64,000 nucleotides of DNA from a virus. The stretch covers positions 1-64,000 of the IMG/VR virus record IMGVR_UViG_3300022554_000002; one strand, 5' to 3'. Below are positions 18,654 to 49,814 of this stretch, one piece after another. Position numbers and translations under genes: made by a program. The notes below the pieces were generated by a model that was not told where the DNA came from, did not search any database, and worked only from the letters and a program-made list of their open reading frames with translations. Positions within the stretch are counted from its first letter, which is position 1. Every line of letters begins with the position of its first letter.

Positions 18654-19173
18654 TCGCCATTATTTCACCTTCTTGCCGCTCTCCATCAGAAGAGGGATTG
18701 TTAATAGCTTTTTGTAAACAGGTTTCATGTACTTCACAATCAAACTCATTACTCATTCGTCGTAGTTCTCCATCTTTAATGGGTTTTTGACAGAACCAAC
18801 AGGGGCCATTTTCTTCTTTTGACCAATCCTTAGTCTCTACTTCTTCAACATGCAAATTTACAATACTTCCATGATTACCCATGAAATAAACAACATTTTT
18901 ATTCTTAGAATTTAGTATATACATCCAAACAGCTTTTTTAATACATCCAAAGGATGATATATTAAAACAACCAAAAATACCATTGTGCGTCTGGTATAAT
19001 GAGCCGTTTTGGTCTATATCATCAGGAAAGGTATTATTAAACTCATATCCCATAATAATGTCAGGAAGTAAAATTGCTACTAATTCTTGTTTATAGTCAG
19101 CAAGCCTATTAATAGCTTTTTGAACCAATTCTTTTGTTAATTTCTTATCAGATACAGTCTCTTGTAAAGCCAT
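18625..19173 (-). CDS. hypothetical protein with C-terminal Cys/His cluster
   Basis: CWFC..EFDCEVHETC. Confidence 0.6.
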   Translation of the reverse strand: MALQETVSDKKLTKELVQKAINRLADYKQELVAILLPDIIMGYEFNNTFPDDIDQNGSLYQTHNGIFGCFNISSFGCIKKAVWMYILNSKNKNVVYFMGNHGSIVNLHVEEVETKDWSKEENGPCWFCQKPIKDGELRRMSNEFDCEVHETCLQKAINNPSSDGERQEGEIMANEFGIQKKE

Positions 19174-21569
19174 TAGGTTTTCGCTCCAATCCCAATAAGA
19201 TAATATCTACAATCAGAAGGTACAAAATCTTTGTAATATCTGAATGGGTCAATTACAACTGAGCCAGAAGGGAATTTGAATTCTTTCCAAATTTCATGCT
19301 GAGTGGCAATAAAGAAAACGTGGGGAGTATGAACAGTTAGTTTATACTCTGGTGTAACTAGAGGATCATAAATGACATGGTTAATATTGCGTTCTAATAG
19401 TAGATTACTAAGTAACATAGCAGGACTACCTGTTGTTAGCCCAATATTGGCTTTAAATGATTTGCCAAGAATTACAATAGGCATATCTTTAGTAGATACT
19501 TTTTTAGTAAAATTCTCAATTGCGTCCGCAAGCTTGTCTACTTGTGCTTCTCGTACAAGCATGAGATACCGGCAGAAATCATAGTCCATATTTAATTCTT
19601 TTGCCAACCAAGACATAGCAATGTTGTCCCTTGGGTGGCAAGAATTACAAACTAAACCACCTTGAGTTACATAATTGTTTACATCCTCTACTTCTATATT
19701 GTAAACCTTACCAGAAAAAGGAATTTTTGTTGTTTTCATTATTTTGTAATAAGTGTAATTTTCATCTATAGGAATTCTAGCAAGAGGACGAATCTTTTTT
19801 TGAATTTCTTTTTTATTAACAAAATTAACAATTTTTGTTAATTTAACAGCGTCTTCATAATTACGAATATTTACCTGATAAACAGGATTTGGATATTTTT
19901 TACCTATATTATTTTGTACTCGCATGTAACTTCTAATATTAAGTTTATTTAGTAAAAACTGAACTGCAATCATTAATTCCTTAGAAATTGTTGTATATGT
20001 AAATCCTTTATAATTACAATGACCATCCCCCCGAAAAAGACCCTGTAAAATTAATTTTGCATATTCTGTTGGTCCATAAAGAACCCACATTGGAATTTTC
20101 TTATTTTTAGCACCTGAACCAAACTCTGCTTTAATATATTGAGCTAATTTAGCTTTATAAAAACAAATATCTGTAGCAGTATTATGGCTCTTCTTAACTT
20201 TTCGTGTAATATATGCATCATCATACATACGTTTAATAATATTTTCAATATCATTCATATATTCTACTTCTTTAGAATTAAGAGTAAACTGAACACCATC
20301 AATGTGTCCACGAGTACCCTTAATACAACCTTCTGCTAAATAATAACCAGCAAGAGAAAGTAAATCTTGTATATTCCAACTTAACTCCGGTGCGGGCAGT
20401 GTTTGTTCTTTAATATTAGGAAATGCAATATAATAAAAAGACTTATCTAAACCAAATAATTGTTCAGAGGGTACTTGACACATTTCGCTGAGTTTTGTTT
20501 TTTCTTTTGGTCCATTAATACTATATTTAGAATAGACTTTATGATTTGGTGTTAATGTAATATTTTTATTTCCCATTAAATCGAACCGAATTAAATCTCC
20601 TGAAAAGTCTCTACTAAATAAATTAGTTACTTTATGTAATAATCCATCACCACCAAGTACTTTATCACCAACGTTAATTGTATTAATATTTACTAAACCA
20701 TTTTCTGTATAAATTTTTTGAGTTTCATCCAAACAACCACCATCGCCCATTCCAGCCGTTAAATATTTGGTAGAAATTAAACGCTCTGTTGCCATTTTAA
20801 GAGCATTTGTGACATCATCCACATTGGCATTTGGAATCTGTTCACATATCTCCATGAGGTAATTAACATAGTCAATTTTCATTGTAATAAATGTATTATA
20901 TGATACTTTGGTCAATTCAGCAGATTCAATACTCATTTCTGCAAATCGTATTGGATTACCTTTAACTGGTCCCTCTTTATAACTATAAATTGTATCATAT
21001 AACTCTTTTAGTTTTTGACATGCCCAATCATCATATTTACCAATGAGCACAAATTCAGGATGATAGAAATCCCAAACTACAGTACCCATTGCAATAAAGA
21101 ATGGGTTATAAACCACTTTAATATTTGAATTTGTAATTTCTGGTAATACATGCCGTCGAATTGTGAAAGGTAAAACGGTGCTGATAATTGCAACAACTTT
21201 AGGCTTGTCAATTTGACACGAATTTAGTTTTTTGATACAATCGACTAGATATGAATAATCAAAGTTAGCAACAGTATCAGGCACTCGTGTTACACCTTCA
21301 TATTCCTTACCATGTGGTGTCTGAATGGCAAGAAAGATAATATCTGAATGATCGACTACTTCTTGCATTGATCCAAACTTAATATCAGATTTTGCAAGCA
21401 TTTCTTGAAAGCCATTAGGCTCTTTGTTTGGTCCAGCTTCGATAGCTGTAAAGTTCTTAGACATGAGTTCAGGAACTACATCATAGCCCATTACAGAGTG
21501 GCCTTTAGCTGCAATAGCAACAGCTACAGGCTTGCCAAGCTTACCGAGTCCAATCATTCCTACGCGCAT
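19173..21569 (-). CDS. UDP-glucose/GDP-mannose dehydrogenase family enzyme containing an intein
   Basis: Rossmann GLGKLG, NPFFIAMG, ELTKVSYNTF, spliced catalytic GG|SCHPRD, LGKSFK. Confidence 0.9.
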   Translation of the reverse strand: MRVGMIGLGKLGKPVAVAIAAKGHSVMGYDVVPELMSKNFTAIEAGPNKEPNGFQEMLAKSDIKFGSMQEVVDHSDIIFLAIQTPHGKEYEGVTRVPDTVANFDYSYLVDCIKKLNSCQIDKPKVVAIISTVLPFTIRRHVLPEITNSNIKVVYNPFFIAMGTVVWDFYHPEFVLIGKYDDWACQKLKELYDTIYSYKEGPVKGNPIRFAEMSIESAELTKVSYNTFITMKIDYVNYLMEICEQIPNANVDDVTNALKMATERLISTKYLTAGMGDGGCLDETQKIYTENGLVNINTINVGDKVLGGDGLLHKVTNLFSRDFSGDLIRFDLMGNKNITLTPNHKVYSKYSINGPKEKTKLSEMCQVPSEQLFGLDKSFYYIAFPNIKEQTLPAPELSWNIQDLLSLAGYYLAEGCIKGTRGHIDGVQFTLNSKEVEYMNDIENIIKRMYDDAYITRKVKKSHNTATDICFYKAKLAQYIKAEFGSGAKNKKIPMWVLYGPTEYAKLILQGLFRGDGHCNYKGFTYTTISKELMIAVQFLLNKLNIRSYMRVQNNIGKKYPNPVYQVNIRNYEDAVKLTKIVNFVNKKEIQKKIRPLARIPIDENYTYYKIMKTTKIPFSGKVYNIEVEDVNNYVTQGGLVCNSCHPRDNIAMSWLAKELNMDYDFCRYLMLVREAQVDKLADAIENFTKKVSTKDMPIVILGKSFKANIGLTTGSPAMLLSNLLLERNINHVIYDPLVTPEYKLTVHTPHVFFIATQHEIWKEFKFPSGSVVIDPFRYYKDFVPSDCRYYLIGIGAKT
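19644..20735 (-). mobile_element. intein with LAGLIDADG endonuclease (364 aa)
   Basis: CLDETQKI start, LTPNHKV, GYYLAEG, GLFRGDG, VYNIEV, ends VCN followed by Ser. Confidence 0.9.
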
Positions 21570-21570
21570 C

Positions 21571-21769
21571 TTATTTTTCTCCCCAGTATGCATTTAATCT
21601 AAATTCTTCATTTTTTGAAGCATATCGTTTCAACCAATATAAACTTTTTCGTGCTTTTGAACGTGTAAAAAATACAAATTGTGGTAACCATGATCCTCCA
21701 CAATATGAGGCAGCACGATTGGCTTTAATTGAAGCTAAAGAAGAAATGGAGAAAAATCATGAAAATTAG
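21571..21769. pseudogene. two startless, divergent gene 3' ends at right inversion breakpoint
   Basis: Minus: CGGSWLPQ..RLNAYWGEK* (21700-21571); plus: QYEAARLALIEAKEEMEKNHEN* (21701-21769); no promoter or start codon between. Confidence 0.6.
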
Positions 21770-22043
21770 ACAGGGTTTTGTCAGTAATTCCAGCAGTGCT
21801 AGTTTTGTCATTGACAAGACTAAACTTAATGGGCTACAAATCATAGCAATTAAAAACCACATTAAAACCGCTATTGAATTGGGTATAGCGCAAGATTACT
21901 TTGATGAAGGTGATGCTTGGGGAATTATAGATAATGACGATGGTACTATGATATTATCAACTAGTATGACTAATTTTGATATGGAAGAATTTTTAGAGAA
22001 AATTGATGCAATTGATGCAATTATTTCTAAAGATTATGACTAA
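21759..22043 (+). CDS. MKIRxGFVSNSSS-leader family protein
   Basis: MKIRQGFVSNSSSASF, SD GGAG. Confidence 0.75.
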   Translation: MKIRQGFVSNSSSASFVIDKTKLNGLQIIAIKNHIKTAIELGIAQDYFDEGDAWGIIDNDDGTMILSTSMTNFDMEEFLEKIDAIDAIISKDYD

Positions 22044-22998
22044 TATGAATAACAAGTTCTTACTAACTCTAGTAGCTTTCAAGTGCAGAGCTTTTGCAGG
22101 ACTTGCCATAAATTCTATATTGAAAAATACAAATCCTGCCAATTTCCACCTTATCATAATTGATAATGGTTCCAATGATGCCACAACAGAATTATTTAAA
22201 ACATATAAAGATAATTCTAACATTACAACTATTATCAACCCTGAAAACATAGGCTTTCCTGCTGCTGTAAACCAAGGTATTGACTATTTTTATAATCATC
22301 CTGAATTTGACTATTTTACTACTGTACATTCAGACACCGTATGCATGTCTTCAAATTGGAACGAGAAAGTAGTTAGCACATTCCAGCAAAATCCAAATAT
22401 TCACTGTTTGGGTGGTATGGCTACAAATCAAGATGAAGGTCAACCTGTATATGGTGATGTTTATCAAAAAATGGTTGCTTACAAAAACGGAATAGAAAAC
22501 CTACAAAATAAGGCAAATGTATATGAGTTGGAAGAGGCATTAAATGGTTTTTATGGTGATCCAAATAAACGCATTGCTGAAATTGAAACAAAATTCAAAG
22601 ATAGATTATTCATTGGTTCAGATAATGCATTTTTAACATTTAAACGAAGAGTCATTGAAGATGTTGGTTATTTTGATGAATCCTTCTTTCCCGGCATGGG
22701 AGAAGATAGTGATTATTACAACCGTATGCATCTACTAGGATATGAAATATGGAGAACAGGCAATTTCTATACTCACCACTGGTGTTCAGTAACCTATTTT
22801 CATACAATGAATGGTCGTGAAGTACACGATAGAGCATTAGGACGATTGGCTACTAAAAAGACCTATGACCAAGAATGCTTGAAATATTCATGCATTAATA
22901 ACAATGATGGAAAATGTAAACGTCCTTTGGTTTGTTTAAATTATAAACTAAATCCACAATATAACAAAGTTAATCCACAACGATTTCCGGTGAGATAA
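22036..22998 (+). CDS. glycosyltransferase family 2
   Basis: IIDNGSND, NIGFPAAVNQG, HSD, VGYFDE..GEDSDY. Confidence 0.85.
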   Translation: MTNMNNKFLLTLVAFKCRAFAGLAINSILKNTNPANFHLIIIDNGSNDATTELFKTYKDNSNITTIINPENIGFPAAVNQGIDYFYNHPEFDYFTTVHSDTVCMSSNWNEKVVSTFQQNPNIHCLGGMATNQDEGQPVYGDVYQKMVAYKNGIENLQNKANVYELEEALNGFYGDPNKRIAEIETKFKDRLFIGSDNAFLTFKRRVIEDVGYFDESFFPGMGEDSDYYNRMHLLGYEIWRTGNFYTHHWCSVTYFHTMNGREVHDRALGRLATKKTYDQECLKYSCINNNDGKCKRPLVCLNYKLNPQYNKVNPQRFPVR

Positions 22999-23646: not shown

Positions 23647-24747
23647 ATGAAGTATGATTTCATAGTAGTTGGTGCTGGATTCTACGGTTGTACCTTTGCT
23701 CGTGCCGTAGCTGAAAAAGGTGCTAGGGTTTTAGTCATTGAAAAAAATGGCTACATAGGTGGACTATCTCATACCTACTTCATTGACAAGGTTCAAGTTC
23801 ACAGTTATGGTCCTCATATTTTACATACTGACTCAGACAGGGTTTGGACGTTTCTAAAACACTTTGGTACTGTCAATAATTTCAAGTACCACCCAATAGC
23901 CTGTTATAAAGATAAGTATTACTCATTTCCTGTCAATAAAATGACTTTGCAACAGGCAAATATCACACCACCGCTGAAAGGACAGACATGTGAAAATGAA
24001 AATTTTGAAGAATACCTGATTCGTAGAATGGGTAAAAAAATATACACGATGTTCTTCTATTATTACACAAAGAAGATGTGGGGAGTAGAACCACGAACAC
24101 TACCAGCATCCATAGCTCATAGAATTCCATTTAGACCAGCAACCCTAAATGATCAGTATTATACTCATAAATATGAAGGAATAGCACAAGACGGCTATAC
24201 AAAATTGATGGAAAATATGTTAGATCATAAAAACATAAAAATATACTATAATGACAATTTCCTAGAAAATAGGTGGCATTATAAGAAAATAGCAAAAAAC
24301 ATAATCTTTACTGGAACTATTGATTCTTACTTCAATTACGAGTTTGGAATGTTACCTTATCGCACTTTGGATATTAACTATGTTGGTAACAAAAAATGGT
24401 ATTACGCAGTAGATGCATTAGGAGCAAATGCAGTAAATTATACTGACAACAGAGAATGCACACGTGAAATTTGTCATAATTACTGGCTACCAGAAACAAT
24501 TAATAATTGTGATAAGTATGTTATAACTACGGAAACACCAAGGTCGCTAACTTCACCATTTGATGAAGGAATTCCTATGTATCCAATGAGAAATATAGGA
24601 AATTCTGTAGAAATCTATGAGAAATACCGAAATCTGGCAAAACATCTCTCGAATGTACATTTTAAAGGAAGATTAGGGGATTATAAATATATGGATATGT
24701 GTCCTACTATTGAGGATGCACTACATTTTGCAGAGGAATTCACATGA
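23647..24747 (+). CDS. glf: UDP-galactopyranose mutase
   Basis: VVGAGFYG, IGG..H.YGPHILHT, YTKKMWG, RIP, LPYRTL, YP, GRLGDYKYMDM. Confidence 0.92.
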   Translation: MKYDFIVVGAGFYGCTFARAVAEKGARVLVIEKNGYIGGLSHTYFIDKVQVHSYGPHILHTDSDRVWTFLKHFGTVNNFKYHPIACYKDKYYSFPVNKMTLQQANITPPLKGQTCENENFEEYLIRRMGKKIYTMFFYYYTKKMWGVEPRTLPASIAHRIPFRPATLNDQYYTHKYEGIAQDGYTKLMENMLDHKNIKIYYNDNFLENRWHYKKIAKNIIFTGTIDSYFNYEFGMLPYRTLDINYVGNKKWYYAVDALGANAVNYTDNRECTREICHNYWLPETINNCDKYVITTETPRSLTSPFDEGIPMYPMRNIGNSVEIYEKYRNLAKHLSNVHFKGRLGDYKYMDMCPTIEDALHFAEEFT

Positions 24748-25163
24748 AAACATTACTAATTATTTTTGTACTCTTTTTTGGTTCTGTTTTTGCCGAAGAC
24801 ATTATTGTAGAAGATAAAGAGTTATTACAAGATGTACAAAAAATGTTAATGGATAATGGTTTTGAAGTCAATGCAATTCTTCCCAAAGTTGTATACTACA
24901 AGAGTAGACCACCGCACTTTGCATTCTTTTGGGCAGGATTAACAAAATTTGAAAATGGAACAATTGAAATTCTTATAATGAGAAATAAGAGTTTTGATTT
25001 AGATACCTTCTATCATGAATGTTACCATTGGTTTATAATTGATGTTGACAGAAATGAAAAAACAGTGAATGGAATTGAAAACAGAGCAGAACGATTCGCA
25101 AAGCTTTGTGTCAAACACTTTAAAAACAAAGTCCCTAAAGGACTTATAGAAAACTCCAAATAA
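24744..25163 (+). CDS. secreted/membrane protein with HExxH motif
   Basis: Signal peptide; FYHECYH..IENRAERFA. Confidence 0.55.
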   Translation: MKTLLIIFVLFFGSVFAEDIIVEDKELLQDVQKMLMDNGFEVNAILPKVVYYKSRPPHFAFFWAGLTKFENGTIEILIMRNKSFDLDTFYHECYHWFIIDVDRNEKTVNGIENRAERFAKLCVKHFKNKVPKGLIENSK

Positions 25164-25167: not shown

Positions 25168-25195
25168 TTGACAACCCTGTTTTTACCTGTATAAT
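25168..25195 (+). promoter_or_regulatory. sigma70-type promoter (N16)
   Basis: TTGACA-16-TATAAT. Confidence 0.85.
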
Positions 25196-26298: not shown

Positions 26299-26326
26299 AT
26301 TATACAAGTAAAAACCTGTTTGTCAA
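26299..26326 (-). promoter_or_regulatory. sigma70-type promoter (N16) for tRNA-Pro
   Basis: TTGACA-16-TATAAT on minus strand. Confidence 0.85.
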
Positions 26327-26335: not shown

Positions 26336-26809
26336 CTAAATTTTTAGCTTTTTCTGTCTAATGCACCAACATTTTCTACAATAAATGTTGTAATAATAGT
26401 CATTACCATGCTTTATAAATGGTTCTACAAGTTCGTGAAAACGAAATTTATGCCTTTTATGGAACAATTTACACCAGAGAAATCTTAAATAAATTAAAAA
26501 CTTATCAAACCCTGAAACCTTTGTTGTATATGAACTAGAATAAGATATAAAAGTCTTGTAATAACTTTGGTCTTCTTCGCAATTAACTTTTTTATAATGA
26601 TAAATCAAAGGTTCTAATTCTTCAATAAAATACATCATATTCTTCTCTGCTTGTTGCTTAGTTCTATAATTAGAACCTTTTCCAACAAAAGTTCCCTTAT
26701 AGTTGGTTAATCTCACTAACCAACACCAACCACGGGTGCTGCTCTCATAAACCTTCACATAAGAACCGGGAGCAAATATCTTCTCTTTAGTTTTGTACTC
26801 TCCACTCAT
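26336..26809 (-). CDS. hypothetical protein
   Basis: ORF; probable start MSGEY. Confidence 0.55.
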   Translation of the reverse strand: MSGEYKTKEKIFAPGSYVKVYESSTRGWCWLVRLTNYKGTFVGKGSNYRTKQQAEKNMMYFIEELEPLIYHYKKVNCEEDQSYYKTFISYSSSYTTKVSGFDKFLIYLRFLWCKLFHKRHKFRFHELVEPFIKHGNDYYYNIYCRKCWCIRQKKLKI

Positions 26810-27404
26810 AAATTGGCACTGTCCATTCAGGAGTTGACACATCTTTAATTTTTGATAATTCCACGTCCTTGTTATTATTTAAAAAATCATTAATGGCTGT
26901 TTTCTGACAAGCATCTGCTAAATTGTAATCATCAAAAACAATTATGGAACCATTCTGCATATATTTCTTAATATAATTCAAAACCAGCAAAGAAGGAGTA
27001 TACGCATCACAATCAACCAAACAAACTGAAATTGGTTCTAATTCTTTATTGGATAAAGTGTTATTAAAATAACCTTTTGTCAATTCATAAGGTATTTTAC
27101 TATTTACAGATTTTGCAAAATTACAAACCTGCTCGTAATCTGTGTCTCCCATAAGACCTTTTGAATATATAAGTTCAATACTACTAATTGGTGGAGGAAA
27201 ACCTTCAAAAGAATCAAACCCATAACATTTAGTAATTTTTGATTCTTTATTGTCCAAATATTTTAAAACTTGACAAAATGAACCACCACGAAACACACCA
27301 AATTCTGCGTAACAACCTGTAAGCCTGCTCAAGTCTAAAGCTGTGAGCACAGCAGGAACAGTACAAGAATTACAAGAAACAAGGTTAAACTGTTCCATTT
27401 TCAA
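26787..27404 (-). CDS. TylF/MycF-family sugar O-methyltransferase
   Basis: EFGVFRGGS, GFDSFEGFP, KGYFNNTL, VDCDAY, IVFDDY. Confidence 0.85.
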   Translation of the reverse strand: MKMEQFNLVSCNSCTVPAVLTALDLSRLTGCYAEFGVFRGGSFCQVLKYLDNKESKITKCYGFDSFEGFPPPISSIELIYSKGLMGDTDYEQVCNFAKSVNSKIPYELTKGYFNNTLSNKELEPISVCLVDCDAYTPSLLVLNYIKKYMQNGSIIVFDDYNLADACQKTAINDFLNNNKDVELSKIKDVSTPEWTVPIYEWRVQN

Positions 27405-27954
27405 TCACCGTAATACCACAATCCTCTGAAAGTACTAATTTATATCTCCATTGTGTGTTTTGTTTTACAAAATTATCAATAACTGAAAGCAAAACAGGGT
27501 GTGAAGAAGTATCATGAAAAGCAATATATTTACTAGCCTTATTTCCATGCAACGCTAACTCAACAGATAATTGAGTAGCAGTGTGTTCAGTATCAATGAA
27601 AAGTAAGTCTGTTTTCTCGATTGAAACTTTAGGATCAATTGTACTGGCACAAACAAACTTAAAATCTATATTATTTTCTGCTGCAATTTCTTCTAATTCT
27701 TTTGTGTTACAAGGTACAAAATCATATGAGCGTAGTACTTTTGGAAGACCAGCCATTAATGCCCACGTTGAGCAAACAGTACGAGTGCCAAATTCAGTAA
27801 CGTGGTCACACTGACTTGCTAAATAATACAATAATGGTGAACAAAATTCCATATCATTAATACAAGATAAACCATTGCAGTTTGTGTATCTTTTTCCACA
27901 AACATTTTCATATTTCTTTTTTAAAGACTCTGAATAGGAATTCTTCGTTTCCAA
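27385..27954 (-). CDS. class I SAM methyltransferase (Methyltransf_24-like)
   Basis: VTEFGTR, LFIDTEH, IAFHDT. Confidence 0.75.
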   Translation of the reverse strand: METKNSYSESLKKKYENVCGKRYTNCNGLSCINDMEFCSPLLYYLASQCDHVTEFGTRTVCSTWALMAGLPKVLRSYDFVPCNTKELEEIAAENNIDFKFVCASTIDPKVSIEKTDLLFIDTEHTATQLSVELALHGNKASKYIAFHDTSSHPVLLSVIDNFVKQNTQWRYKLVLSEDCGITVIENGTV

Positions 27955-28745
27955 TTTACATTATCCTCTTTGTCCCAAAATATAGAACGACTGCAAATAG
28001 ACCCATCTAACCTAACGCCGTGTTTCTGCTCAAAATATCTACGATTTACCTGTTGAAACCCATTTCCACCATCATGTTCTGTCATAAACGTCTGCGTCAC
28101 CCCACCATAATGAAATATTACAGAATTATAAGTGGTTAACACCTTTAAACCACTCTTTTCTGTCCTTAATGTATAATCTGCATCCTCATAAGCTGTTTTT
28201 ATATATCCGGTATCAAATGTACCCACTCGCTCAAGACATTCACTGGTAATACCAAATGCACAAAAATGAGCACCCTCATCAACCTTACCATCATTAACTT
28301 TGTAATAATTCTTAGTCCATTCAAACCACTTTTCGTGGTCTGCATGTATATCTTCTGCCTTGTATAACCCGTCAACAACATGGGAAGACACAACACCAGC
28401 TTCAGGATGATTGGCAACGAACATATTAAGGTTTGAGAGCCAGTTATAACCCAAAATAACATCATTATTTAAAATATAAACCACATCAGAAAAACCACTA
28501 TCAACAGCATTGTCAATAATTTGATTCCATGCTGTGGGAGCACCTAAATTAGTGGGATTATCAATATATGTAGTGTTTTCCATACCAAATAGTAATTTAT
28601 TAAAATACTCTTTAGAACCATCCTTGGAACCATTATCCACAACTACAAGGTGAAATGGATAGTCCTTAATTCGTCTAATAGAATCCATCGTATCCTGTGA
28701 ATACTTAAGACAGTTGTAAGCAGCAACACCCACTGTAACTTTCAT
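27921..28745 (-). CDS. glycosyltransferase family 2 (frame open upstream to 28853)
   Basis: VVDNGSKDG, NLGAPTAWN, LNND, VGTFD..YEDADY; SD AGGAG before 28745. Confidence 0.85.
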   Translation of the reverse strand: MKVTVGVAAYNCLKYSQDTMDSIRRIKDYPFHLVVVDNGSKDGSKEYFNKLLFGMENTTYIDNPTNLGAPTAWNQIIDNAVDSGFSDVVYILNNDVILGYNWLSNLNMFVANHPEAGVVSSHVVDGLYKAEDIHADHEKWFEWTKNYYKVNDGKVDEGAHFCAFGITSECLERVGTFDTGYIKTAYEDADYTLRTEKSGLKVLTTYNSVIFHYGGVTQTFMTEHDGGNGFQQVNRRYFEQKHGVRLDGSICSRSIFWDKEDNVNWKRRIPIQSL

Positions 28746-28791
28746 ATATGACTCCTGATTTAATCCAAGTAAAACTTCCTCACTCTGCTCT

Positions 28792-28832
28792 CCACCATGT
28801 TTAAATCGTGGAATATGACCACCATGTTTAAA
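28792..28832. repeat. 14-nt direct repeat CCACCATGTTTAAA x2 (period 27)
   Basis: 28792-28805 and 28819-28832. Confidence 0.8.
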
Positions 28833-28854
28833 GGGCAATGAATATTCAAACATA

Positions 28855-29091
28855 TTAACACATATTCTCTGTTTCGTCTTTTATTTCTTTGTAAAAATTT
28901 TCCCAATAAATACTTGTTAATTCTCCATCAGATTCATACATTGCTAATCGCTTACATAGTAAATCTACTCGCGCTACTTGTTTTTCATCCCACGGAGGAT
29001 GATAATACTGCATATATAGCAAGGCAAATCCTAGCTCTTTACGACATTTTTCAATCAACAGCCATTCCATTATTTTAATGCCTTTCTCCAT
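28855..29091 (-). CDS. hypothetical protein
   Basis: ORF. Confidence 0.5.
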   Translation of the reverse strand: MEKGIKIMEWLLIEKCRKELGFALLYMQYYHPPWDEKQVARVDLLCKRLAMYESDGELTSIYWENFYKEIKDETENMC

Positions 29092-30345: not shown

Positions 30346-30373
30346 ATTATACAACTAAGGAGCAATTTGTCAA
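30346..30373 (-). promoter_or_regulatory. sigma70-type promoter (N16)
   Basis: TTGACA-16-TATAAT on minus strand. Confidence 0.85.
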
Positions 30374-33650: not shown

Positions 33651-33659
33651 TTTTCACCT

Positions 33660-39586: not shown

Positions 39587-40428
39587 GGATCAGGAACCGT
39601 AGTAACTATCTTCTCAACTTCTTCTTTTAAATTGCTATATTTAGTATTTAACTCAGCATTCATTTCAGATAAATCCATTGTACATTCTGGTTGGTATGAA
39701 TCTGGTCCCCAAATACTATGAAATGTATTTCTATTTGCCCACTGGTCAGGATTAGTGTCTCGCATCTCACGAGTACCCATACCTTTATGGTACACACACA
39801 CTAAACTGCAAATAGCCATTATATAGCCCATTTGCTTAAATCTAAACCACTGGTCATGGTCTTCAAAACCACCAATATTGACATATTTATTATTAAAAAT
39901 GTAACCCCACTTGTCGTAGAATTCATAAAGGAATTTGGCATTCATTAAATGTGGGCAGGAATTACCTTCACGTAATATTTCGCCTTTTTGCATAGATACC
40001 ACTGAACCATCAATATTATGTGTGCCGGGACATAACTTTACAACCAAATCACTGCAATCCTTATGAATGTCAATTAATTTGTTAGCCCAATTATACTGAG
40101 GAAACCGCATGTCAGTATGAATCCAGATCATGTTTTCGCTTGCTGGTGCTATATTTGTATCAAAATTGCTACCATCAGGCTGAAAACCCATAGAAATGTA
40201 ATAACCAGCATTAAGTGCGTCTGACAAGTGTGGATAAGTACCAAAAACTGAACCAATTTGTCTGATTTTCTTCAACTCTTCTTCAGAACTACCACCATCA
40301 ACAATAACAAGTTTATGGCTACTGTTTACTGGTAAGCTGGCTAACAATGACTCATACATCTTAAGTGCATTATCACCGTCATTAAAAGTTGTTAGTATAA
40401 AACTAGTCATTATCAACTCCCAAAACAA
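39565..40428 (-). CDS. glycosyltransferase family 2-like
   Basis: IVDGGS, WIHTD, GGFEDHD, VYHKG. Confidence 0.7.
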   Translation of the reverse strand: MFWELIMTSFILTTFNDGDNALKMYESLLASLPVNSSHKLVIVDGGSSEEELKKIRQIGSVFGTYPHLSDALNAGYYISMGFQPDGSNFDTNIAPASENMIWIHTDMRFPQYNWANKLIDIHKDCSDLVVKLCPGTHNIDGSVVSMQKGEILREGNSCPHLMNAKFLYEFYDKWGYIFNNKYVNIGGFEDHDQWFRFKQMGYIMAICSLVCVYHKGMGTREMRDTNPDQWANRNTFHSIWGPDSYQPECTMDLSEMNAELNTKYSNLKEEVEKIVTTVPDPWKKSCN

Positions 40429-43092: not shown

Positions 43093-43332
43093 CTATTTCC
43101 TTGTGTGGTAAACTTCAAAAACTTGACTATCTTGAATTGGTGGCATTACTCTAATATAGTAAATTTGTTGCTCTAACAATTTTTTGTATTGGTCTAAAAT
43201 TATTTGTTCTCTAACGTACTCACATAGACTAGGTGTTTTAAATGTGCTATAATCCTTCTCTAACACACCACAATGCTTACAAGCCATTGTAATACTTGTA
43301 AAACCGGTATTTACAAACTCATGTTTACACAT
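43093..43332 (-). CDS. hypothetical protein with CxHE..CxxC module
   Basis: MCKHEFVNTGF..CKHC. Confidence 0.55.
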   Translation of the reverse strand: MCKHEFVNTGFTSITMACKHCGVLEKDYSTFKTPSLCEYVREQIILDQYKKLLEQQIYYIRVMPPIQDSQVFEVYHTRK

Positions 43333-43335: not shown

Positions 43336-43602
43336 CTAACTCCTGCAACATTTTTTAAACTTCTTGCCAGAACCACAAGGACAAGGAGCATTACCACGAA
43401 TCACCTTACCAGCAGACAAACGAGAAATGTAAGCCCTGCCGGGACCAGCAACAGACTTGGTAGACAACACAACTTTTGACTCTAAAGCACCTTCTTGAAA
43501 CAACGGCAGTTCCTTCTTAGGTTCTTCTTTTTTAACTTCGGTTTCCGGCTTATCCATTCTTAATCTCCTTGTGTTCCACATCAATAACAGGTTTACCACC
43601 AA
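43336..43602 (-). CDS. SEC-C motif protein
   Basis: NAPCPCGSGKKFKKCC. Confidence 0.75.
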   Translation of the reverse strand: MVVNLLLMWNTRRLRMDKPETEVKKEEPKKELPLFQEGALESKVVLSTKSVAGPGRAYISRLSAGKVIRGNAPCPCGSGKKFKKCCRS

Positions 43603-44233
43603 CTAGGTCTGGTGACAAAGTATCGGCCACTAGGTTTATTATAAGGCTCTTCACGTCATCTGTCAAGCGATTTTCTGCTTCAATTTTATCACAGAACCGT
43701 TCCATGTTTTGTGCAAGAATATTAATGCTGATTGCCGGTTGGACTTGGCCTTGAATCCTAGCCATAAGTTCAACAGTAGCACGTATTTCTTGCAATAAAT
43801 TGAGGAAAAATCCTGCCCTTGACTCTAGAACAGGTGTTTCAGGATTGCGAAGCTTGTCCAACTCTGATTCCAGAATGGTTACTGACTTTTCTAATTTACT
43901 CATAACCTTTTGATGTGCCTGAACTATAGATAGATTACCTGCTTCGGTATTGGAAGGTGATTTTTCTAGTTCCATCTTGGAAGAACGTAAGAATTGTTCA
44001 ACATTGGAAGCACTAATCATTACATACTGGTTCTGATCACCATTCTTAACACGTTCCATTAACTTAGCATTACATTCTTTAGCAATTTTATAACTACTAA
44101 ATTCTTGGAACTTTAAATCCCAACACAACTCACTCAAATTATATCTTTTTATACGACTTTCATGTAATGATCGTTCAGCTTCCAATATTCCTAATTCTTC
44201 TGCTTGTGCAGATGTCAACAATTCACCAGCCAT
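43550..44233 (-). CDS. hypothetical helical protein
   Basis: 227-aa ORF. Confidence 0.65.
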   Translation of the reverse strand: MAGELLTSAQAEELGILEAERSLHESRIKRYNLSELCWDLKFQEFSSYKIAKECNAKLMERVKNGDQNQYVMISASNVEQFLRSSKMELEKSPSNTEAGNLSIVQAHQKVMSKLEKSVTILESELDKLRNPETPVLESRAGFFLNLLQEIRATVELMARIQGQVQPAISINILAQNMERFCDKIEAENRLTDDVKSLIINLVADTLSPDLVGGKPVIDVEHKEIKNG

Positions 44234-44235: not shown

Positions 44236-44901
44236 TTACCCCTTTAACTGATCTTTATTTTCTAACCAAAAAGCCTTGATTTCATTATTAACTTTACTGA
44301 TTTTTGCAGCAGGAAGATCCAACAATCTAGAAACCTCATTAAATTTCAAAGAATAGCCATAAATCAAAAACATTACATCAGCATGTAAATCACTTTGTAG
44401 CTTGGTACGTATGAAATTACACATATTTATGAAGTTCTGAGTCACACCTGTAGGAGTTTGAATGTCTTCCAACTCTACACTATCAGAATGTATCATAGGA
44501 TGCAAATCTACGTGGTGGAGATTCTTTTCCAAATCATTTGACTCAGGTTTTATAGGGTGTAAAAGCCTGTAAACCTCCCAATCCATAGTACGCTTTAAAT
44601 AATTAGAAAAATAAACAGTGGTAAACCCCTCTTTTTTCTTCTTATTTGTAAATTCTGAGTTATACCGAAGAATAATCTTGTAAAAAATACCACGAACTAA
44701 ATTAAACACATCTTTATATGTCAAATTTTGAGAACGGGACTGTTTTACAATATTATAGGTAGTAGACTTTAATAAAGAAGAATAAATACGCTCTAGTTCA
44801 TCAAAATAAAAATCTACTGATTCATTTGTATAGGCAGCATATTGTATATGATCAACTAAAAGTGCAATATATTCAAAATTAGTAATTGATTTTCGTTGCA
44901 T
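44236..44901 (-). CDS. possible sigma70-like / HTH transcription factor
   Basis: Region-2-like (Y.SEF..F..Y..YL) and C-terminal LKFNEVSRLLDLPAAKISK HTH; SD GGAG. Confidence 0.45.
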   Translation of the reverse strand: MQRKSITNFEYIALLVDHIQYAAYTNESVDFYFDELERIYSSLLKSTTYNIVKQSRSQNLTYKDVFNLVRGIFYKIILRYNSEFTNKKKKEGFTTVYFSNYLKRTMDWEVYRLLHPIKPESNDLEKNLHHVDLHPMIHSDSVELEDIQTPTGVTQNFINMCNFIRTKLQSDLHADVMFLIYGYSLKFNEVSRLLDLPAAKISKVNNEIKAFWLENKDQLKG

Positions 44902-45205
44902 CAGACTCCGCAAACTTTTTAACAAATCCCAAGAGTATTCTGGCTGTACTCTTGTAATCCGTGGTAATTGATTGTGAAAATACAGTAAGCTTGTAGGTGT
45001 CATTGTTTGTCCATTTCAATACTACATCCCTTGGACACAAAACATCAAATTTACAATTTAAAAATTCTATTACAAAATTAGCAAAATCCTGCCTTATTAA
45101 AATTTCCTTTGACTGTAATAAGGCATGTATTGGTTCTAGCCTATTTAATCCTGATATAATACAACTGCTTTGGAAATCAATTTCCTCTGCTTTTCGTGTA
45201 CCCAT
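44879..45205 (-). CDS. hypothetical protein
   Basis: Coupled to both neighbours. Confidence 0.55.
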   Translation of the reverse strand: MGTRKAEEIDFQSSCIISGLNRLEPIHALLQSKEILIRQDFANFVIEFLNCKFDVLCPRDVVLKWTNNDTYKLTVFSQSITTDYKSTARILLGFVKKFAESDATKINY

Positions 45206-47389
45206 TTATTCTCGTACCAATGTATTGTAAAACCCCTGTGTTTGTTTTGCAATACTCTTCCAACTGTACCGTTCTACGAATAAATCTCGCAAATTAAGGA
45301 AATTAGCACTGTACTCTGACTCTGCCGCTTTTCTAAGAAATACATTCGCATTAGGCATCCATTCTTGTAAATTGTCTGGGTTTTCCCCTACAAAGTGTAA
45401 TAATCCTTCATAATGAACAACATCCATGAAGAAACTATTCTTTAATGTCATAATAGGTGTTCCAGCCTTTAAACATGTACGTATTGCTGCTGAAACTCCA
45501 TATCCACCGTATTCTGAATATGGTAGGAATATTGCAGTTGTTTCAGACAATTTTTTAACAATTTCATTTTCAGGAAGATAATCCTCAACCCAATTGAAAT
45601 TACTAATATCAAGACGCTTGACTAACTCCTTACATCGTACAAAATAACCGGAATCATTATCAGGTTTAGTAGAAAAAACAAGGAAATCAACATCTGGTCG
45701 GTTCTTTGCATAATATGCTAATTTATCAACACCTTTATGGAAATAACAAAAACCAAAGAATCCAATTGTAGGTTTTTCAAGCTTTTTCTCAGGCTTAATA
45801 CACTCGTCTGGTTTAATACCCATTGGAATAACAGTAATCTTATTATTATCTTTAGAAAAACCACAACAATTAATTAAAACATCTCGCATAATTGGCGAAG
45901 ACACAATAATATTAACATTATTACGAATTAAGACTTCATGATAGTCCCATGCTCTAGGATTTACTGTATGCATTGTTACTACTAACTTCATATTAGCATC
46001 TTTACAATATTTGGCTAAAATTTCCAATCGTTTTGGTGACATAAATTGATATTCTAATTGTACATGTACTATATTAACATCATATTTATCCAAAACTGTG
46101 TTGTAATAAATAGACTCATTACCAGCAAGCAAACTATTAGCCAAATGTGTAGGATTCTCATTAAATCCAGTGTATAATGCAGTACTATAATCTGCAATAC
46201 CACATTTTGTTCCTGCTGATTTGCAAAACATGGCTAAATTAAATTTGCCGTCTAGTGCTGGAACAGAAACAGGTTTTGATCGTTTGTAATTATGATTTTG
46301 AATAGTATCAATTAACTGCTGAGATACCTTATTCAGGTCACACATGCCCTTAAGCTTGGTAGAAAGTGCCAAACCCTTATCATTAGAATTATCATTCAAT
46401 GCTGCACGTAATTGCTTCTTGGCAGAGAACTTAATAGGAGCAAACCAACGTAAACCATCATAATAACGAGCAACAGGACCATCACAAATGGCTGGAATGG
46501 TTTGAGAGTTGATTAAATATGCTGTTTCCGGTGTTGCATATGCTGTATATGCAGAATGATTAGGCACAATTAAAGTTTTGCCCAAAACACCACAAATTGA
46601 TTCTGACATGCCCCATCCTTCACCATATGACATGCTAATATAATGTGTACACCAGTGATACAACGAATACATTGCTGCTTCAGTAAGAAAATCAGTAAGT
46701 ATATAAATAGGTGCACATTTATTATCTTTTAAAAGGTGTTTTACCTTTTCGCGGAAAAAGTCTAACTTCAATCCAGAATTAGAGTTAAGCTTAAGAACAA
46801 GACAAGCATCATCAGTTGGTTTTGTCTCTTCGCACCACAAACGAATAAGATTTTCTAAGTTTTTTCTTGTTACAAATTCAGAGCAATTCAAGAACCGCTT
46901 AGAATAGTTATTAATTACATTTAATCCTTCAGCTAATTTTGTTACAACAGGTGGCTGTAAAATCTTATCAATATTCAATGGACATGGACAAACAGCAAGT
47001 TTATTTTCAGGCACTCCACTTGATGCAAATGATTTTTTATTGAATTCTGTTGGTACTATGACTAAATCCAGTGGTTCAGTACTCTTCGCCCAAAGAGTAC
47101 AAATAGAATCTGCTTCAAACATGGTATAACAGACATTCTTGATAGTTACTTCCAAGCGTGTCTGATCCAACAAGGAAAAATTAAGCAAAAAATCAGGCTG
47201 AACATTGTTCTGCTCGTATTGATTCAAAATATGATCAATTTCGGTCTGTGCTCTGAAATTTGACCACTCTTTAAATTCCATAAGACGAACATTGTTCATA
47301 TTATTCCACCAACCTAGAATAAAATTACGAACGACATTATCATAACCTGTAACACCACGATATGGGCCAAAAGCAGCAAAATTAGCCAT
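45206..47389 (-). CDS. tandem two-domain GT-B (GT4-like) glycosyltransferase
   Basis: Domain 1 RKNLE..YGEGWGM..E; domain 2 CGIADYS..FGF..HKG..LPYSE..SAA. Confidence 0.8.
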   Translation of the reverse strand: MANFAAFGPYRGVTGYDNVVRNFILGWWNNMNNVRLMEFKEWSNFRAQTEIDHILNQYEQNNVQPDFLLNFSLLDQTRLEVTIKNVCYTMFEADSICTLWAKSTEPLDLVIVPTEFNKKSFASSGVPENKLAVCPCPLNIDKILQPPVVTKLAEGLNVINNYSKRFLNCSEFVTRKNLENLIRLWCEETKPTDDACLVLKLNSNSGLKLDFFREKVKHLLKDNKCAPIYILTDFLTEAAMYSLYHWCTHYISMSYGEGWGMSESICGVLGKTLIVPNHSAYTAYATPETAYLINSQTIPAICDGPVARYYDGLRWFAPIKFSAKKQLRAALNDNSNDKGLALSTKLKGMCDLNKVSQQLIDTIQNHNYKRSKPVSVPALDGKFNLAMFCKSAGTKCGIADYSTALYTGFNENPTHLANSLLAGNESIYYNTVLDKYDVNIVHVQLEYQFMSPKRLEILAKYCKDANMKLVVTMHTVNPRAWDYHEVLIRNNVNIIVSSPIMRDVLINCCGFSKDNNKITVIPMGIKPDECIKPEKKLEKPTIGFFGFCYFHKGVDKLAYYAKNRPDVDFLVFSTKPDNDSGYFVRCKELVKRLDISNFNWVEDYLPENEIVKKLSETTAIFLPYSEYGGYGVSAAIRTCLKAGTPIMTLKNSFFMDVVHYEGLLHFVGENPDNLQEWMPNANVFLRKAAESEYSANFLNLRDLFVERYSWKSIAKQTQGFYNTLVRE

Positions 47390-47483: not shown

Positions 47484-48563
47484 TTAACTCCGCAACATGC
47501 TATCAACCAACTGCTCAAATGTATATTCCTGACTCCATCCCAATTCTGTCTTAATCTTTGTTGGATCACAAAGTAAATAATCGACTTCTGCTGGACGATA
47601 ATACTGCAAATCAACTGCAACAACCGTTTGACCGCGAACAGTAACATGTTCACACGTGCCAGAACCAGCAAACTCAAATGTTTCATTACCCAATACTTTA
47701 GATAATACAATTGTTAAAAAATCTCTCACTGAATATGCATGTCCAGAACCAAACGCATAAGATTTCCACACCCCATCCCAATTTTTATTATATTCATCTT
47801 GATGCATGATACGATAAATGGCATCCACTGAGTCTAAAGCGTGTGACCAATCCCGTTTTGCATCCATATTGCCAAGATACAGACAGGGTAAATTGTTAAA
47901 ACTCCATTTTGATGCATCATCAGCAATAAAACTCTGTGTCCCATTTCCTAATGGAACTTCTAGAGCACTTTTTAGCTCATTAGCCCAATTTGTAATCTTT
48001 TTAGTCACAAAATTGTCACCACGTCTTGGAGACTCAGTATTAAACATAAAACCACATGCTGCTTTAAGTCCATATGCCTGACTATAAATACGAACCATAT
48101 GGTGTGCTGCCAATTTCGCACAACCGTATGGCGATTGTGGCATTAATGGTGTATCTTCATTTTGTGGTGGGGGAGATTTACCGAATAATTCTGATGTACT
48201 AGCTTGATACAGCCTTGTATGTTTGGAATAATGTCTAATTGCCTCTAAAATATTCAATACACCAACAGCGTCAATCTCAAATGTCGTTGTTGGCTGTTCA
48301 AAACTGGAACCAACATGTGATTGTGCAGCTAAATTCACAACACAATCATATTGACCGGCCTGAATTATATGATTCATACAGCTTGGGTCAGTAAGATCAC
48401 CTTCAATTAGCTGAATTTCATTCAAAATATGCTTAATATTCTTATTATTTTCTACAGACTTACGACGATTCAATCCATGAACTTCGTAACCCTTATCTAG
48501 CAAATATTCTGCCATGTAAGAACCAACTTGGCCAGTTATACCTGTAATTAGTGCTTTAGACAT
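47484..48563 (-). CDS. gmd: GDP-mannose 4,6-dehydratase
   Basis: LITGITGQ, NLAAQSHV, QASTSELFG, SPYGCAKL, ESPRRG.NFVT.KI, LGNMDAKRDW. Confidence 0.92.
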   Translation of the reverse strand: MSKALITGITGQVGSYMAEYLLDKGYEVHGLNRRKSVENNKNIKHILNEIQLIEGDLTDPSCMNHIIQAGQYDCVVNLAAQSHVGSSFEQPTTTFEIDAVGVLNILEAIRHYSKHTRLYQASTSELFGKSPPPQNEDTPLMPQSPYGCAKLAAHHMVRIYSQAYGLKAACGFMFNTESPRRGDNFVTKKITNWANELKSALEVPLGNGTQSFIADDASKWSFNNLPCLYLGNMDAKRDWSHALDSVDAIYRIMHQDEYNKNWDGVWKSYAFGSGHAYSVRDFLTIVLSKVLGNETFEFAGSGTCEHVTVRGQTVVAVDLQYYRPAEVDYLLCDPTKIKTELGWSQEYTFEQLVDSMLRS

Positions 48564-48572
48564 TATTTTCTC

Positions 48573-49814
48573 CTACACCAATCGTGTGACACGAAGTGCA
48601 TTACTGTCATATTTCAACACTTCTTCGATAGCTTTATCCCACATATCTACACAGGTTTCCCATGTATACTTTTTCACATCTTCTACGCCCTGTAGAGACT
48701 TTTGTTTTAACTCTTCTCGGTTATCATAGGCTCTTTGAATACAGGCAGTATAATCTTCAAAAGAACCAACTGCACGATGTGTATGAAAACCACCCACATG
48801 CAACGTATATGGGCAGAAATATGAATTTTTCTCATTACAAAAATCAGTATGACCAGAGAAATTGAAAACAATTGGAACTGTGCCTGCGGCCATAGCAGAA
48901 CAAATGGTTAATCCAAATCCTTCACCATTTGCAGGATGAATTAACACGTCAGAAGCGGCAATACTCGCTGCAATCATATTATCAGGCTGATCTTGTGGAA
49001 TCAAGATTAAATTTTTTGTGTCCTGCATAAAGCAACCAAGATCATAGACACCAATCTGCTGACTGATTGCTGCGCTGTGTGTAAATAGTAAAAAAGTAAC
49101 GTCTGCTTTATTTTTCTCAAATCGTTTCCATGCTTCATATTGCAAACCAAGATTTTTACGATCTTGGTTTGCACCAACGAAAATAGCAACAAATTTATTG
49201 ACTAAATTCAACTTACCCCTTGTGACTTGTGCTATTTGTTTCCGTAATTCCTCTTTTCCATTTTTTGGATAATGATATTGATTAAAATCAATACCATATG
49301 GAATAACATCAACTTTTAAATCTGCCCAACGATCTTCAATTACTTTCTTACCATAAAATGCAGGAGAAACAATCTTATCATATGGCTTAAGCGTATCATA
49401 CCACTTCCAATAAGCCGGTTCTCCATCAATTGTAACATAGCCTATAAATTTAATATTTGGAAACTTAGCCTTTAAATGTGGAAGAGTTGAAAATAACCAA
49501 GGATCATGTGAAAAAATGACAACTTCTGGATGAGTACAATTAATAACCTTTTCCATATCATTACAATCAATTATCGACATTACGCCTTGTTTCTTTTCTT
49601 CCTCATTTACTCCCCCTCTACGAGCAGGAATAATTGATATATCAGGTAAAGTCTGTTTTGTTTCAGGCTTAACCTTAGTAATTTCGTCTTCACCAAAACC
49701 AAGCTGAATAATTTGATGTTTAGCTTTCAATCGTGCAATAATATTTCTAGAGACAACTGATTGACCAACATAGGGAATACGTAAGCTATCAGAAATCCAA
49801 AGAACCTTAGCCAT
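48573..49814 (-). CDS. glycosyltransferase family 4
   Basis: VIPYGID, GANQDRKN, EGFGL..AMAAG. Confidence 0.85.
   Translation of the reverse strand: MAKVLWISDSLRIPYVGQSVVSRNIIARLKAKHQIIQLGFGEDEITKVKPETKQTLPDISIIPARRGGVNEEEKKQGVMSIIDCNDMEKVINCTHPEVVIFSHDPWLFSTLPHLKAKFPNIKFIGYVTIDGEPAYWKWYDTLKPYDKIVSPAFYGKKVIEDRWADLKVDVIPYGIDFNQYHYPKNGKEELRKQIAQVTRGKLNLVNKFVAIFVGANQDRKNLGLQYEAWKRFEKNKADVTFLLFTHSAAISQQIGVYDLGCFMQDTKNLILIPQDQPDNMIAASIAASDVLIHPANGEGFGLTICSAMAAGTVPIVFNFSGHTDFCNEKNSYFCPYTLHVGGFHTHRAVGSFEDYTACIQRAYDNREELKQKSLQGVEDVKKYTWETCVDMWDKAIEEVLKYDSNALRVTRLV

Follow-up and report, generated by a model that had tools for sequence, protein, structure and literature searches.

A lineage-conserved cassette of soluble glycosyltransferases with exchangeable sugar-nucleotide and methyltransferase genes in an uncultured large tailed phage

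What does a tailed phage build with a dozen sugar genes, and on which acceptor would the product be placed? This question is raised by a complete IMG/VR virus genome of 194,473 bp with direct terminal repeats (record IMGVR_UViG_3300022554_000002), whose first 64 kb (bases 1-64000, hereafter the window) carry a set of about 12 glycan genes at positions 19173-49814. A preliminary description of the window had listed nucleotide-sugar enzymes, glycosyltransferases (GTs), and methyltransferases in this region, and every listed gene class was found in place using Pfam, NCBIfam, profile-profile alignment, and fold comparison, for a genome-wide total of about 13 soluble sugar-making, sugar-attaching, or sugar-methylating genes. 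We tentatively read this set as a soluble two-layer glycan system whose acceptor would be a phage-made protein, likely a virion component, and give this reading somewhat less than an even chance.

Relatives of the phage were retrieved by alignment-based scans of IMG/VR and metagenomes; these queries succeeded where searches for related loci with single proteins returned nothing for the double GT-B protein described below and for SbcC, and only one 4-kb contig for PolA. Two of the relatives are near-complete phages, namely, G002 (contig L017, 192 kb, 40% guanine-plus-cytosine [GC]) and G003 (contig L018, 212 kb, 38% GC), to which BLAST matched only 39 and 33, respectively, of the 276 open reading frames (ORFs) of the present genome. 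Among the shared genes are those for capsid, portal, terminase, and tail proteins, RecA, and SbcC, as well as four GTs that lie in both genomes as one block in the order sbcC, GT4, double GT, GT2 (the type found here at 36834), and GT-A-like gene (the type found at 39565). This block, or the visible part of it, was also recovered in contigs L016, L046, L051, L054, L055, L057, L061, L062, and L063, with GC contents ranging from 33 to 51%; altogether, at least 12 related contigs carry the cassette downstream of sbcCD. Homologs of the core GT2 follow the double GT in L017, L018, L051, L055, L057, L061, L062, and L063, and homologs of the GT-A-like gene were found in L017, L018, L048, L051, L054, and L055. 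Judging from this synteny, the GT4, double GT-B, GT2, and GT-A-like genes are a four-gene cassette with five predicted catalytic domains that constitutes a core of the lineage beside sbcCD. In the present phage, the cassette is split by gmd and about 7 kb of other genes.

Comparison of the same relatives indicates that the sugar-nucleotide genes and the methyltransferases are accessory and differ from one phage to another. The epimerase-like short-chain dehydrogenase/reductase (SDR) gene and gmd are both absent from G002 and G003, and gmd lies between the GT4 and double GT genes only in the present phage, L016, and L046, being found elsewhere in L062. In G002, the cassette is followed by an extra GT2 gene and, at L017:16746-20789 (+), by GlnA-like, HNH, and methyltransferase genes, a phosphoenolpyruvate (PEP) mutase gene (PF13714, E 1e-41), and an HpcH/HpaI-type aldolase gene, a set suggesting a phosphonate decoration pathway. 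Extra GT2 genes also occur in G003, L051, L057, and L063. A GT cassette that behaves as lineage core amid exchangeable accessory genes makes it likely that the acceptor is conserved as well.

The GT genes themselves agree well with what had been expected from the window. Among the four genes first described as GT2-like, three are GT2 by Pfam, and the fourth, at 39565-40428, is a divergent GT-A enzyme that Pfam had missed; it displays GT-A-like motifs and was recognized by an hhalign profile comparison in which the query combined this ORF with its three homologs from relatives. The double GT4-like gene was likewise borne out, as an AlphaFold2 (AF2) model based on a 37-sequence alignment (predicted local distance difference test [pLDDT] 92) comprises two complete GT-B units. 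Both GT-B families are lineage-specific, as judged from the sharp similarity drop beyond their 29 and about 40 members. The GT4 family comprises 29 proteins sharing 35-90% identity, with next-best matches at only 24%, and the double GT-B has about 40 full-length homologs and none detected by tblastn among 50,697 GenBank phage records. In one 127-kb metagenome contig (L062:10001-13375, +), the double GT-B is divided into two ORFs of 377 and 336 amino acids (aa), and the intervening 275-aa ORF, which is related to the window ORF at 303-1205, looks like a mobile-element insertion or an intron. For both the GT4 and the double GT-B, the top Protein Data Bank (PDB) fold is 3oy2, the B736L protein of chlorovirus NY-2A, with a narrow lead over cellular GT4 enzymes. 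The term "giant-virus-like" used in the preliminary description is apt for the gene content; for the fold of these two GTs, the small margin over generic GT4 enzymes weakens it. Beyond the window, one further gene of the GT4 type was recognized at genome positions 142419-143492.

A hydropathy scan detected no transmembrane (TM) segment in any of the glycan proteins. When extended to all 276 ORFs, the scan revealed none with more than three hydrophobic segments, specific Pfam families of polytopic proteins not having been searched singly, and the maximum in G002 and G003 was four segments per ORF, again with no polytopic protein. The lack of export and polymerase machinery noted earlier for the window is therefore confirmed at the scale of the genome.

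The precursor enzymes include a nucleotide-sugar dehydrogenase whose ORF encodes 806 aa, reduced to 442 aa once an intein is spliced out. The intein interrupts the catalytic GGSC motif between GG and SC, with GDGG before it and Ser-Cys-His-Pro-Arg-Asp after it; predicted splicing would restore GGSC and yield an enzyme of normal length. It displays the features of class 1 inteins (Cys1, a C-terminal Asn, Ser at +1, LAGLIDADG, and insertion in a conserved catalytic motif) and ends in Cys-Asn, Cys replacing the usual penultimate His. A second intein, 27% identical to the first, interrupts a 1,445-aa ORF at genome positions 98696-103033 (-), the N-terminus of which resembles a head maturation protease. 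The best PDB match of the SDR is 4zrm, a UDP-glucose 4-epimerase (E 2e-44), and its most likely substrates, as predicted from these matches, are uridine diphosphate (UDP)-glucose/UDP-galactose (UDP-Glc/UDP-Gal) or the corresponding uronic acids (UDP-GlcA/UDP-GalA). The closest phage matches of Gmd are found in cyanomyoviruses (44% identity), and a comparison of gmd with genome contigs returned two distant, uninformative matches only, from which neither host nor donor could be deduced. The second methyltransferase gene (27385-27954) overlaps both adjoining genes and has neither a Pfam match nor a PDB sequence match; in other viruses, proteins are found that join this fold to a GT2 or GT90 domain. 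No sugar-1-phosphate nucleotidyltransferase was found in the genome, and no SDR gene besides gmd and the epimerase. The system would thus depend on host UDP-Glc, UDP-Gal, and guanosine diphosphate (GDP)-mannose (GDP-Man), and its description as autonomous was overstated. All features are listed in Table 1.

Table 1. Positions of glycan genes, promoters, and associated features (window coordinates unless marked as genome)
Feature	Position	Strand	Evidence	Remarks
Nucleotide-sugar 6-dehydrogenase (probably UDP-glucose)	19173-21593	-	PF03721, PF00984, PF03720; TIGR03026 E 4e-45	Accessory
Intein, 364 aa, LAGLIDADG homing-endonuclease domain	19644-20735	-	PF14528 E 2.5e-13; TIGR01445; sub-threshold PF14890	
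GT2	22003-22998	+	PF00535 E 1.4e-15; no TM segment	Accessory; plus-strand module with glf
glf, UDP-galactopyranose mutase (to UDP-galactofuranose)	23647-24747	+	PF03275 E 8e-49; TIGR00031 E 3e-72, full length	Accessory
TylF-family sugar O-methyltransferase-like	26787-27404	-	PF05711 E 1.6e-16; PF13578 E 1.6e-10	Accessory
Second class I S-adenosylmethionine (SAM) methyltransferase, viral Methyltransf_24/CmcI-like	27385-27954	-	Atlas feature score 0.98, TM-score 0.87 to viral methyltransferase clusters	
GT2	27921-28853	-	PF00535 E 1.4e-17	Accessory; translationally coupled to both methyltransferases
Extended-SDR NDP-sugar 4-epimerase-like	29070-30086	-	PF01370 E 2e-50; GalE TIGR01179 E 4e-40 (below curated cut-off)	
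GT2	36834-37829	-	PF00535 E 6e-8	Core cassette
Divergent GT-A (GT2-like)	39565-40428	-	hhalign against GT2 profile: 97% probability, E 1e-10, 213 columns	Core cassette
Double GT-B, 727 aa, two GT4-like units (residues 1-365 and 383-727)	45206-47389	-	PF13439; AlphaFold	Core cassette
gmd, GDP-mannose 4,6-dehydratase	47484-48563	-	PF16363 E 1.5e-105; TIGR01472 E 1.5e-99	Accessory; between core GT4 and double GT
GT4, retaining-type GT-B	48573-49814	-	PF00534, PF13692; AF2 pLDDT 93	First core-cassette gene, downstream of sbcCD
Perfect sigma-70-type promoter	30346-30373	-	12/12 consensus	Drives 80-aa ORF, SDR, GT2, methyltransferase, methyltransferase
Perfect sigma-70-type promoter	37865-37892	-	Consensus match	Directly upstream of core GT2
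Perfect sigma-70-type promoter	51218-51245	-	Consensus match	Between sbcC and GT4/gmd/double-GT unit
Perfect sigma-70-type promoter	255-282	+	Consensus match	
Perfect sigma-70-type promoter	25168-25195	+	Consensus match	
Perfect sigma-70-type promoter	26299-26326	-	Consensus match	
Perfect sigma-70-type promoter	57630-57657	-	Consensus match	
Candidate late-promoter motif copies	35121-35136; genome 95358, 103058, 106502, 110207, 136436	-	Motif enrichment	
Three interleaved ORFans (477, 888, 193 aa)	30375-35093	-	Behind late-type motif 35121-35136	Link to glycan system speculative

Could the set be a captured or mis-assembled bacterial polysaccharide operon, or plain host contamination? Individual members such as gmd, glf, and the dehydrogenase gene do belong to ordinary bacterial families. 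However, the genes are scattered over 30 kb amid phage genes and ORFans in a closed genome with an exact terminal repeat of 73 bp, the interleaved genes being real and comprising an HNH gene, a tRNA-Pro gene, a dCMP deaminase gene, and an HD-like gene. The GC content, third-position GC, and codon use of the 12 glycan genes lie at the genome mean (35% GC overall) or nearer to it than average, phage-type consensus promoters are found upstream, the dehydrogenase intein is related to the second intein of the genome, and synteny is retained in more than 10 related phage contigs. Moreover, the genome encodes the hallmarks of tailed phages (portal, large terminase, head protease, and a major head protein of the small HK97 type at genome positions 97260-98153) and a phage sigma factor, together with a family-A DNA polymerase, RecA, and SbcCD. 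Contamination is hence hardly conceivable, and the set is encoded by the phage. No GenBank phage has a polymerase more than 28% identical to that of the present phage, the named best matches being Bacillus, Lysinibacillus, and Clostridium phages (26-28%), and megablast of 20.8 kb of the region against the 50,697 GenBank phage records returned no match.

Small ORFs around the glycan genes showed further features. Just 3' of glf, a 139-aa ORF (24744-25163, +) begins with a clear signal peptide, contains an HExxH motif (HECYH), and may encode a small secreted metallopeptidase-like protein. In addition, a Cys-rich module of about 25 residues, C-x-H-x-(W/F)-V-N-x-G-F-x-S-I-x-x-x-C-K-x-C-G, is common to three small proteins that are not otherwise related. 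These proteins are encoded at window positions 30083-30325 (-) and 43093-43332 (-) and at genome positions 155545-156051 (-), and the module is C-terminal in two of them and N-terminal in the third.

Expression signals place the glycan genes with respect to the phage cycle. The sigma-70 promoters mentioned in the preliminary description are real: the genome contains 60 perfect TTGACA-N16/17-TATAAT sites, of which seven fall within the glycan region or adjoin it. Most combine an extended -10 box, TGTATAAT, with a strong ribosome site, AGGAG. Their density is high at 1-17 kb and 153-194 kb and falls to zero in the structural block at 90-125 kb, and minus-strand promoters at 51245, 43666, 37892, and 30373 head glycan-gene units. 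As these units lie behind sigma-70 promoters and the structural block has none, the glycan genes appear to belong, together with the replication genes, to an early or middle class transcribed by the host polymerase. The same signals suggest a host with canonical sigma-70/sigma-A and Shine-Dalgarno sequences, probably not a member of the Bacteroidota. A second motif, GATTATA(T/C)(T/A)...(A/T)A(T/G)(A/G)(A/G), is a candidate late-promoter signal concentrated in the non-coding DNA before structural genes; 10 of its 13 sites are non-coding (p = 1e-8), and two of the 13 are merely the reverse complement of sigma-70 -10 boxes. Within the glycan region, it precedes only the unit of the 477-, 888-, and 193-aa ORFans. 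Downstream of the double GT, a 255-aa ORF (44236-45003, -) and a 227-aa ORF (43550-44233, -) are kept in closer relatives (L047:2608-4650). Both were considered as extra glycan enzymes and rejected, since their alignments by eye look sigma-factor-like and helix-turn-helix-like. This arrangement parallels that of T4, where the late sigma factor gene 55 lies near a-gt and genes 47 and 46, just as a sigma-factor-like ORF (by eye) follows the double GT here.

The genomic setting of the cassette within a replication/recombination module speaks for DNA, one of the three targets offered in the preliminary description. The GTs could hypermodify the DNA of the phage with an oligosaccharide in the manner of T4, RB69, DLP3, RL38J1, and YerA41. 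In T4, the alpha-glucosyltransferase gene adjoins genes 47 and 46 (sbcDC), and the beta-glucosyltransferase gene lies between uvsX and gene 42; the present GT4 also matches PF20706 "GT4-conflict," barely above the cut-off. More generally, DNA-glycan phages (T4; RB69 and DLP3 with arabinosyl-5-hydroxycytosine [5hoC]; RL38J1; and those with methyltransferase-TET-GT [MT-TET-GT] clusters) resemble the present one in carrying GT-A/GT-B genes, and in one case Glf, in a DNA-metabolism region. The DNA of Rhizobium phage RL38J1 contains hexosylated 5hoC, with a phage mutase proposed as the source of UDP-galactofuranose (PMC13326640), and in YerA41, T carries a modification of about 1 kDa that resembles an oligosaccharide (PMC9023294).

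Published DNA-glycan pathways, however, cluster with a base hydroxylase (bioRxiv 10.1101/2023.12.21.572611). No match to a ThyA-family (PF00303) hydroxylase/hydroxymethylase was found in the present genome or in G001-G003, control genomes being matched by the same search, and no C5-methyltransferase (PF00145) was found in the genome; TET/JBP (PF12851) also gave no match, yet the control genomes were equally silent. To our knowledge, every known route of DNA glycosylation needs a base hydroxylase. In addition, ThyX and the dCMP deaminase point to a canonical dTTP supply. The ThyX match (genome 145496-146121, -) is divided between two adjacent stretches, each with its own open frame of about 150 aa, and the cause may be a frameshift, a short insertion, or splitting of the gene.

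Restriction-site avoidance provided a second line of evidence on DNA. In each third of the genome (64-kb pieces), six to nine of about 40 testable 6-bp palindromes had an observed/expected ratio of at most 0.2, versus about 0.1% of non-palindromes; the avoided words (observed/expected) include CTGCAG (0/33), TTCGAA (0/24), CAGCTG (0/18), ACCGGT (1/20), and ATCGAT (1/20). In equal-sized pieces of glycosylated-DNA control genomes, no palindrome was avoided in T4 (0/44) or RL38J1 (0/37). This strong avoidance, unlike T4 and RL38J1, and the lack of a detectable base hydroxylase or hydroxymethylase together disfavor DNA as the target, which we consider very unlikely. G002 and G003 showed similarly strong palindrome avoidance with different avoided words, and an avoided set that differs among the three related phages implies that they infect different hosts, whose type II restriction systems differ as well.

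These host differences bear directly on the acceptor. Since the cassette is kept across phages that differ in their avoided sites and GC contents, and thus in their hosts, an acceptor that is conserved because the phage itself supplies it is favored. The main competing explanation is that the enzymes remodel an envelope glycopolymer of the host during infection via host exporters, acting on lipid-linked intermediates at the cytoplasmic face, with wall teichoic acid, capsule or lipopolysaccharide (LPS) intermediates, or S-layer glycan as candidates, and that this would block superinfection or keep progeny from sticking to debris. Galactofuranose (Galf), glucuronic acid (GlcA), and 6-deoxyhexoses are typical sugars of wall polymers, the promoters are of the early or middle host type, TarM and other lipid- or polymer-acting GT4 enzymes are among the fold matches, and the accessory set varies among relatives as if tuned to different hosts. 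The same explanation has been put forward for cyanophage P-SSM2 and its 24 "LPS" genes (PMC1079782), and the cyanomyovirus affinity of gmd noted above fits with it. Against it, the four-GT core is retained in spite of the implied change of hosts, no priming transferase, flippase, polymerase, or ligase emerged from the hydropathy scan, and the phage looks strictly lytic, as no integrase was noted, although no systematic integrase search was made. We therefore regard envelope remodeling as unlikely, though a serious contender.

The product could alternatively lie elsewhere, as a methylated oligo- or polysaccharide in the cytoplasm, a small molecule bearing a glycan, or a host protein glycosylated for takeover, or the genes could mainly divert the sugar-nucleotide pools of the host. 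All enzymes being soluble, with no carrier or export genes, would suit such a role, as would the early or middle promoters, and the fold matches include makers of cytoplasmic products, namely, the methylmannose-polysaccharide mannosyltransferase 7qsg, GlgM, MshA, and BshA. However, GT4 fold matches do not discriminate between acceptors, and five conserved GT domains, supplemented by further GTs and by methyltransferases, imply that a defined multi-sugar structure is made and not that pools are depleted. We know of no precedent for such a product in phage infection, and consider this outcome improbable.

Returning to a glycan on a phage-made protein, the donor sugars and order of action that we infer from the gene set would be as follows. 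The core cassette would build a conserved core oligosaccharide, and the lineage-variable set would convert host UDP-Glc, UDP-Gal, and GDP-Man. The dehydrogenase, once spliced, would supply UDP-GlcA, the GalE-like SDR UDP-Gal or UDP-GalA, Glf UDP-Galf, and Gmd a GDP-4-keto-6-deoxyhexose, and the two further GT2s and two SAM methyltransferases would extend and O-methylate the chain. Transcription of the glycan genes by host RNA polymerase along with the replication and recombination genes would have enzymes and donors ready before assembly. The acceptor would then be a phage-made protein, probably a virion component, as for the capsid glycans of chloroviruses and the glycosylated virions of mycobacteriophages.

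Several observations weigh against this proposal. No acceptor was identified, and neither the capsid C-terminus nor any other ORF carries a Ser/Thr-rich tract, unlike the case reported for mycobacteriophages. The cassette adjoins recombination/replication genes with early or middle promoters rather than structural genes, no dedicated reductase or epimerase that would finish the Gmd product was recognized, and the fold likeness to a chlorovirus GT barely exceeds that to many cellular GT4 enzymes. Furthermore, lipid-linked intermediates of wall polymers are also among the substrates of soluble GT2 and GT4 enzymes, which reach them at the inner face of the membrane, so a host target is compatible with the lack of TM segments and exporters.

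A bolder and speculative version of the proposal takes the late-expressed 477-aa and 888-aa ORFans as the acceptors. Neither could be assigned to a family or gave a usable Atlas model; no homolog was found for the 477-aa ORF (33660-35093, -), and the 888-aa ORF (30984-33650, -) has no homolog among 1.8 billion representative proteins except a 109-aa fragment matching residues 1-71. Both ORFs begin with a common N-terminal M-x-[KR]-F-S-x-I-Y-I-A-Q-[ST] motif, found nowhere else in the genome or in G002 and G003, which one might speculate to be a targeting signal akin to the capsid-targeting sequences of T4. Small Ser-tagged proteins were also considered as acceptors of the core cassette: six proteins of the genome start with MK(I/T)RxGFVSNSSS(S/A)SF, one of which (21759-22043, +) precedes and overlaps the GT2 gene at 22003. 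This candidate was rejected, as G002 has the cassette but neither a tagged protein nor the partner radical-SAM gene; G003 has one.

Published examples of sugar clusters lacking exporters come from cyanomyoviruses and moraphages, and mycobacteriophages provide functional ones. What is specific to the present case is the organization of four GTs as a lineage-core cassette with swappable accessories, the dehydrogenase intein, and the negative evidence on DNA modification. The "LPS/cell-wall" sugar clusters of cyanomyoviruses comprise 24 genes in P-SSM2 (PMC1079782). Like P-SSM2, S-SKS1, S-SCSM1, and ACG-2014f, the present phage combines a large lytic genome with many epimerase, dehydratase, and transferase genes and no exporters, and beyond those clusters it carries glf, the intein-bearing dehydrogenase, and two methyltransferases. 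It differs from them in its backbone, with a family-A polymerase and a small HK97-type capsid protein instead of T4-like genes (Straboviridae/Kyanoviridae), and in the fixation of its four GTs beside sbcCD, whereas cyanomyovirus islands are strain-variable, P-SSM4 lacking the clusters of P-SSM2.

Moraphages are jumbo phages with predicted hosts in the Bacteroidota, in which four GT orthogroups are present in at least 80% of genomes (PMC12619734). An uncultured large-phage lineage with four core GTs is a common trait. Moraphage identity was nevertheless judged unlikely, as moraphages use a family-B polymerase. They also have T4-like structural genes, and the present phage has a family-A polymerase and expression signals of the sigma-70/Shine-Dalgarno type, a distinction drawn from descriptions of moraphages.

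Chloroviruses (PBCV-1 and NY-2A) and mimiviruses likewise encode nucleotide-sugar enzymes (GMD and UGDH), soluble GTs, and sugar methyltransferases, and the fold of the second methyltransferase occurs fused to GT domains in giant viruses. In contrast, the present virus is tailed and infects bacteria, its proteins show no relationship to those of chloroviruses at the sequence level (about 15% identity), and a glycan on its capsid is hypothetical. Soluble GTs encoded outside the structural operon are shared with mycobacteriophages, in which, according to Freeman and colleagues (2023, as cited in PMC12619734), those of Che8, Corndog, and Myrna reportedly glycosylate capsid and tail proteins; those phages have cassettes of few genes acting on C-terminal tails and no five-domain cassette. 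Finally, Wzx/Wzy and ABC O-antigen or capsule loci and gtrABC differ from the present system by their polytopic membrane proteins, none of which emerged from the hydropathy scan.

Large phages repeatedly carry soluble glycan gene sets of unidentified target, and the cyanophage clusters have stood unexplained since 2005. A five-domain GT cassette that forms a lineage core, with supply and tailoring genes swapped around it, offers a comparative handle on such sets, and restriction-site avoidance measured against glycosylated-DNA control phages may help to sort other phage GT islands into those acting on DNA and those that do not. It is possible, though doubtful, that the cassette is the hallmark of an uncultured family of tailed phages of about 130-210 kb that place a core glycan on a virion protein and add swappable decorations, namely, Galf, GlcA, 6-deoxyhexose, and O-methyl groups here and possibly phosphonate in G002. 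In the capsid glycans of chloroviruses, a shared and conserved core of five sugars bears variable decorations (PMC7826918). If the core-plus-decoration reading is correct, the present system would be a bacterial-virus counterpart of that capsid glycan, and if the acceptor is indeed on the virion, a family of bacterial viruses would regularly bear glycan coats, which would be relevant to adsorption, stability, and recognition by hosts or predators.

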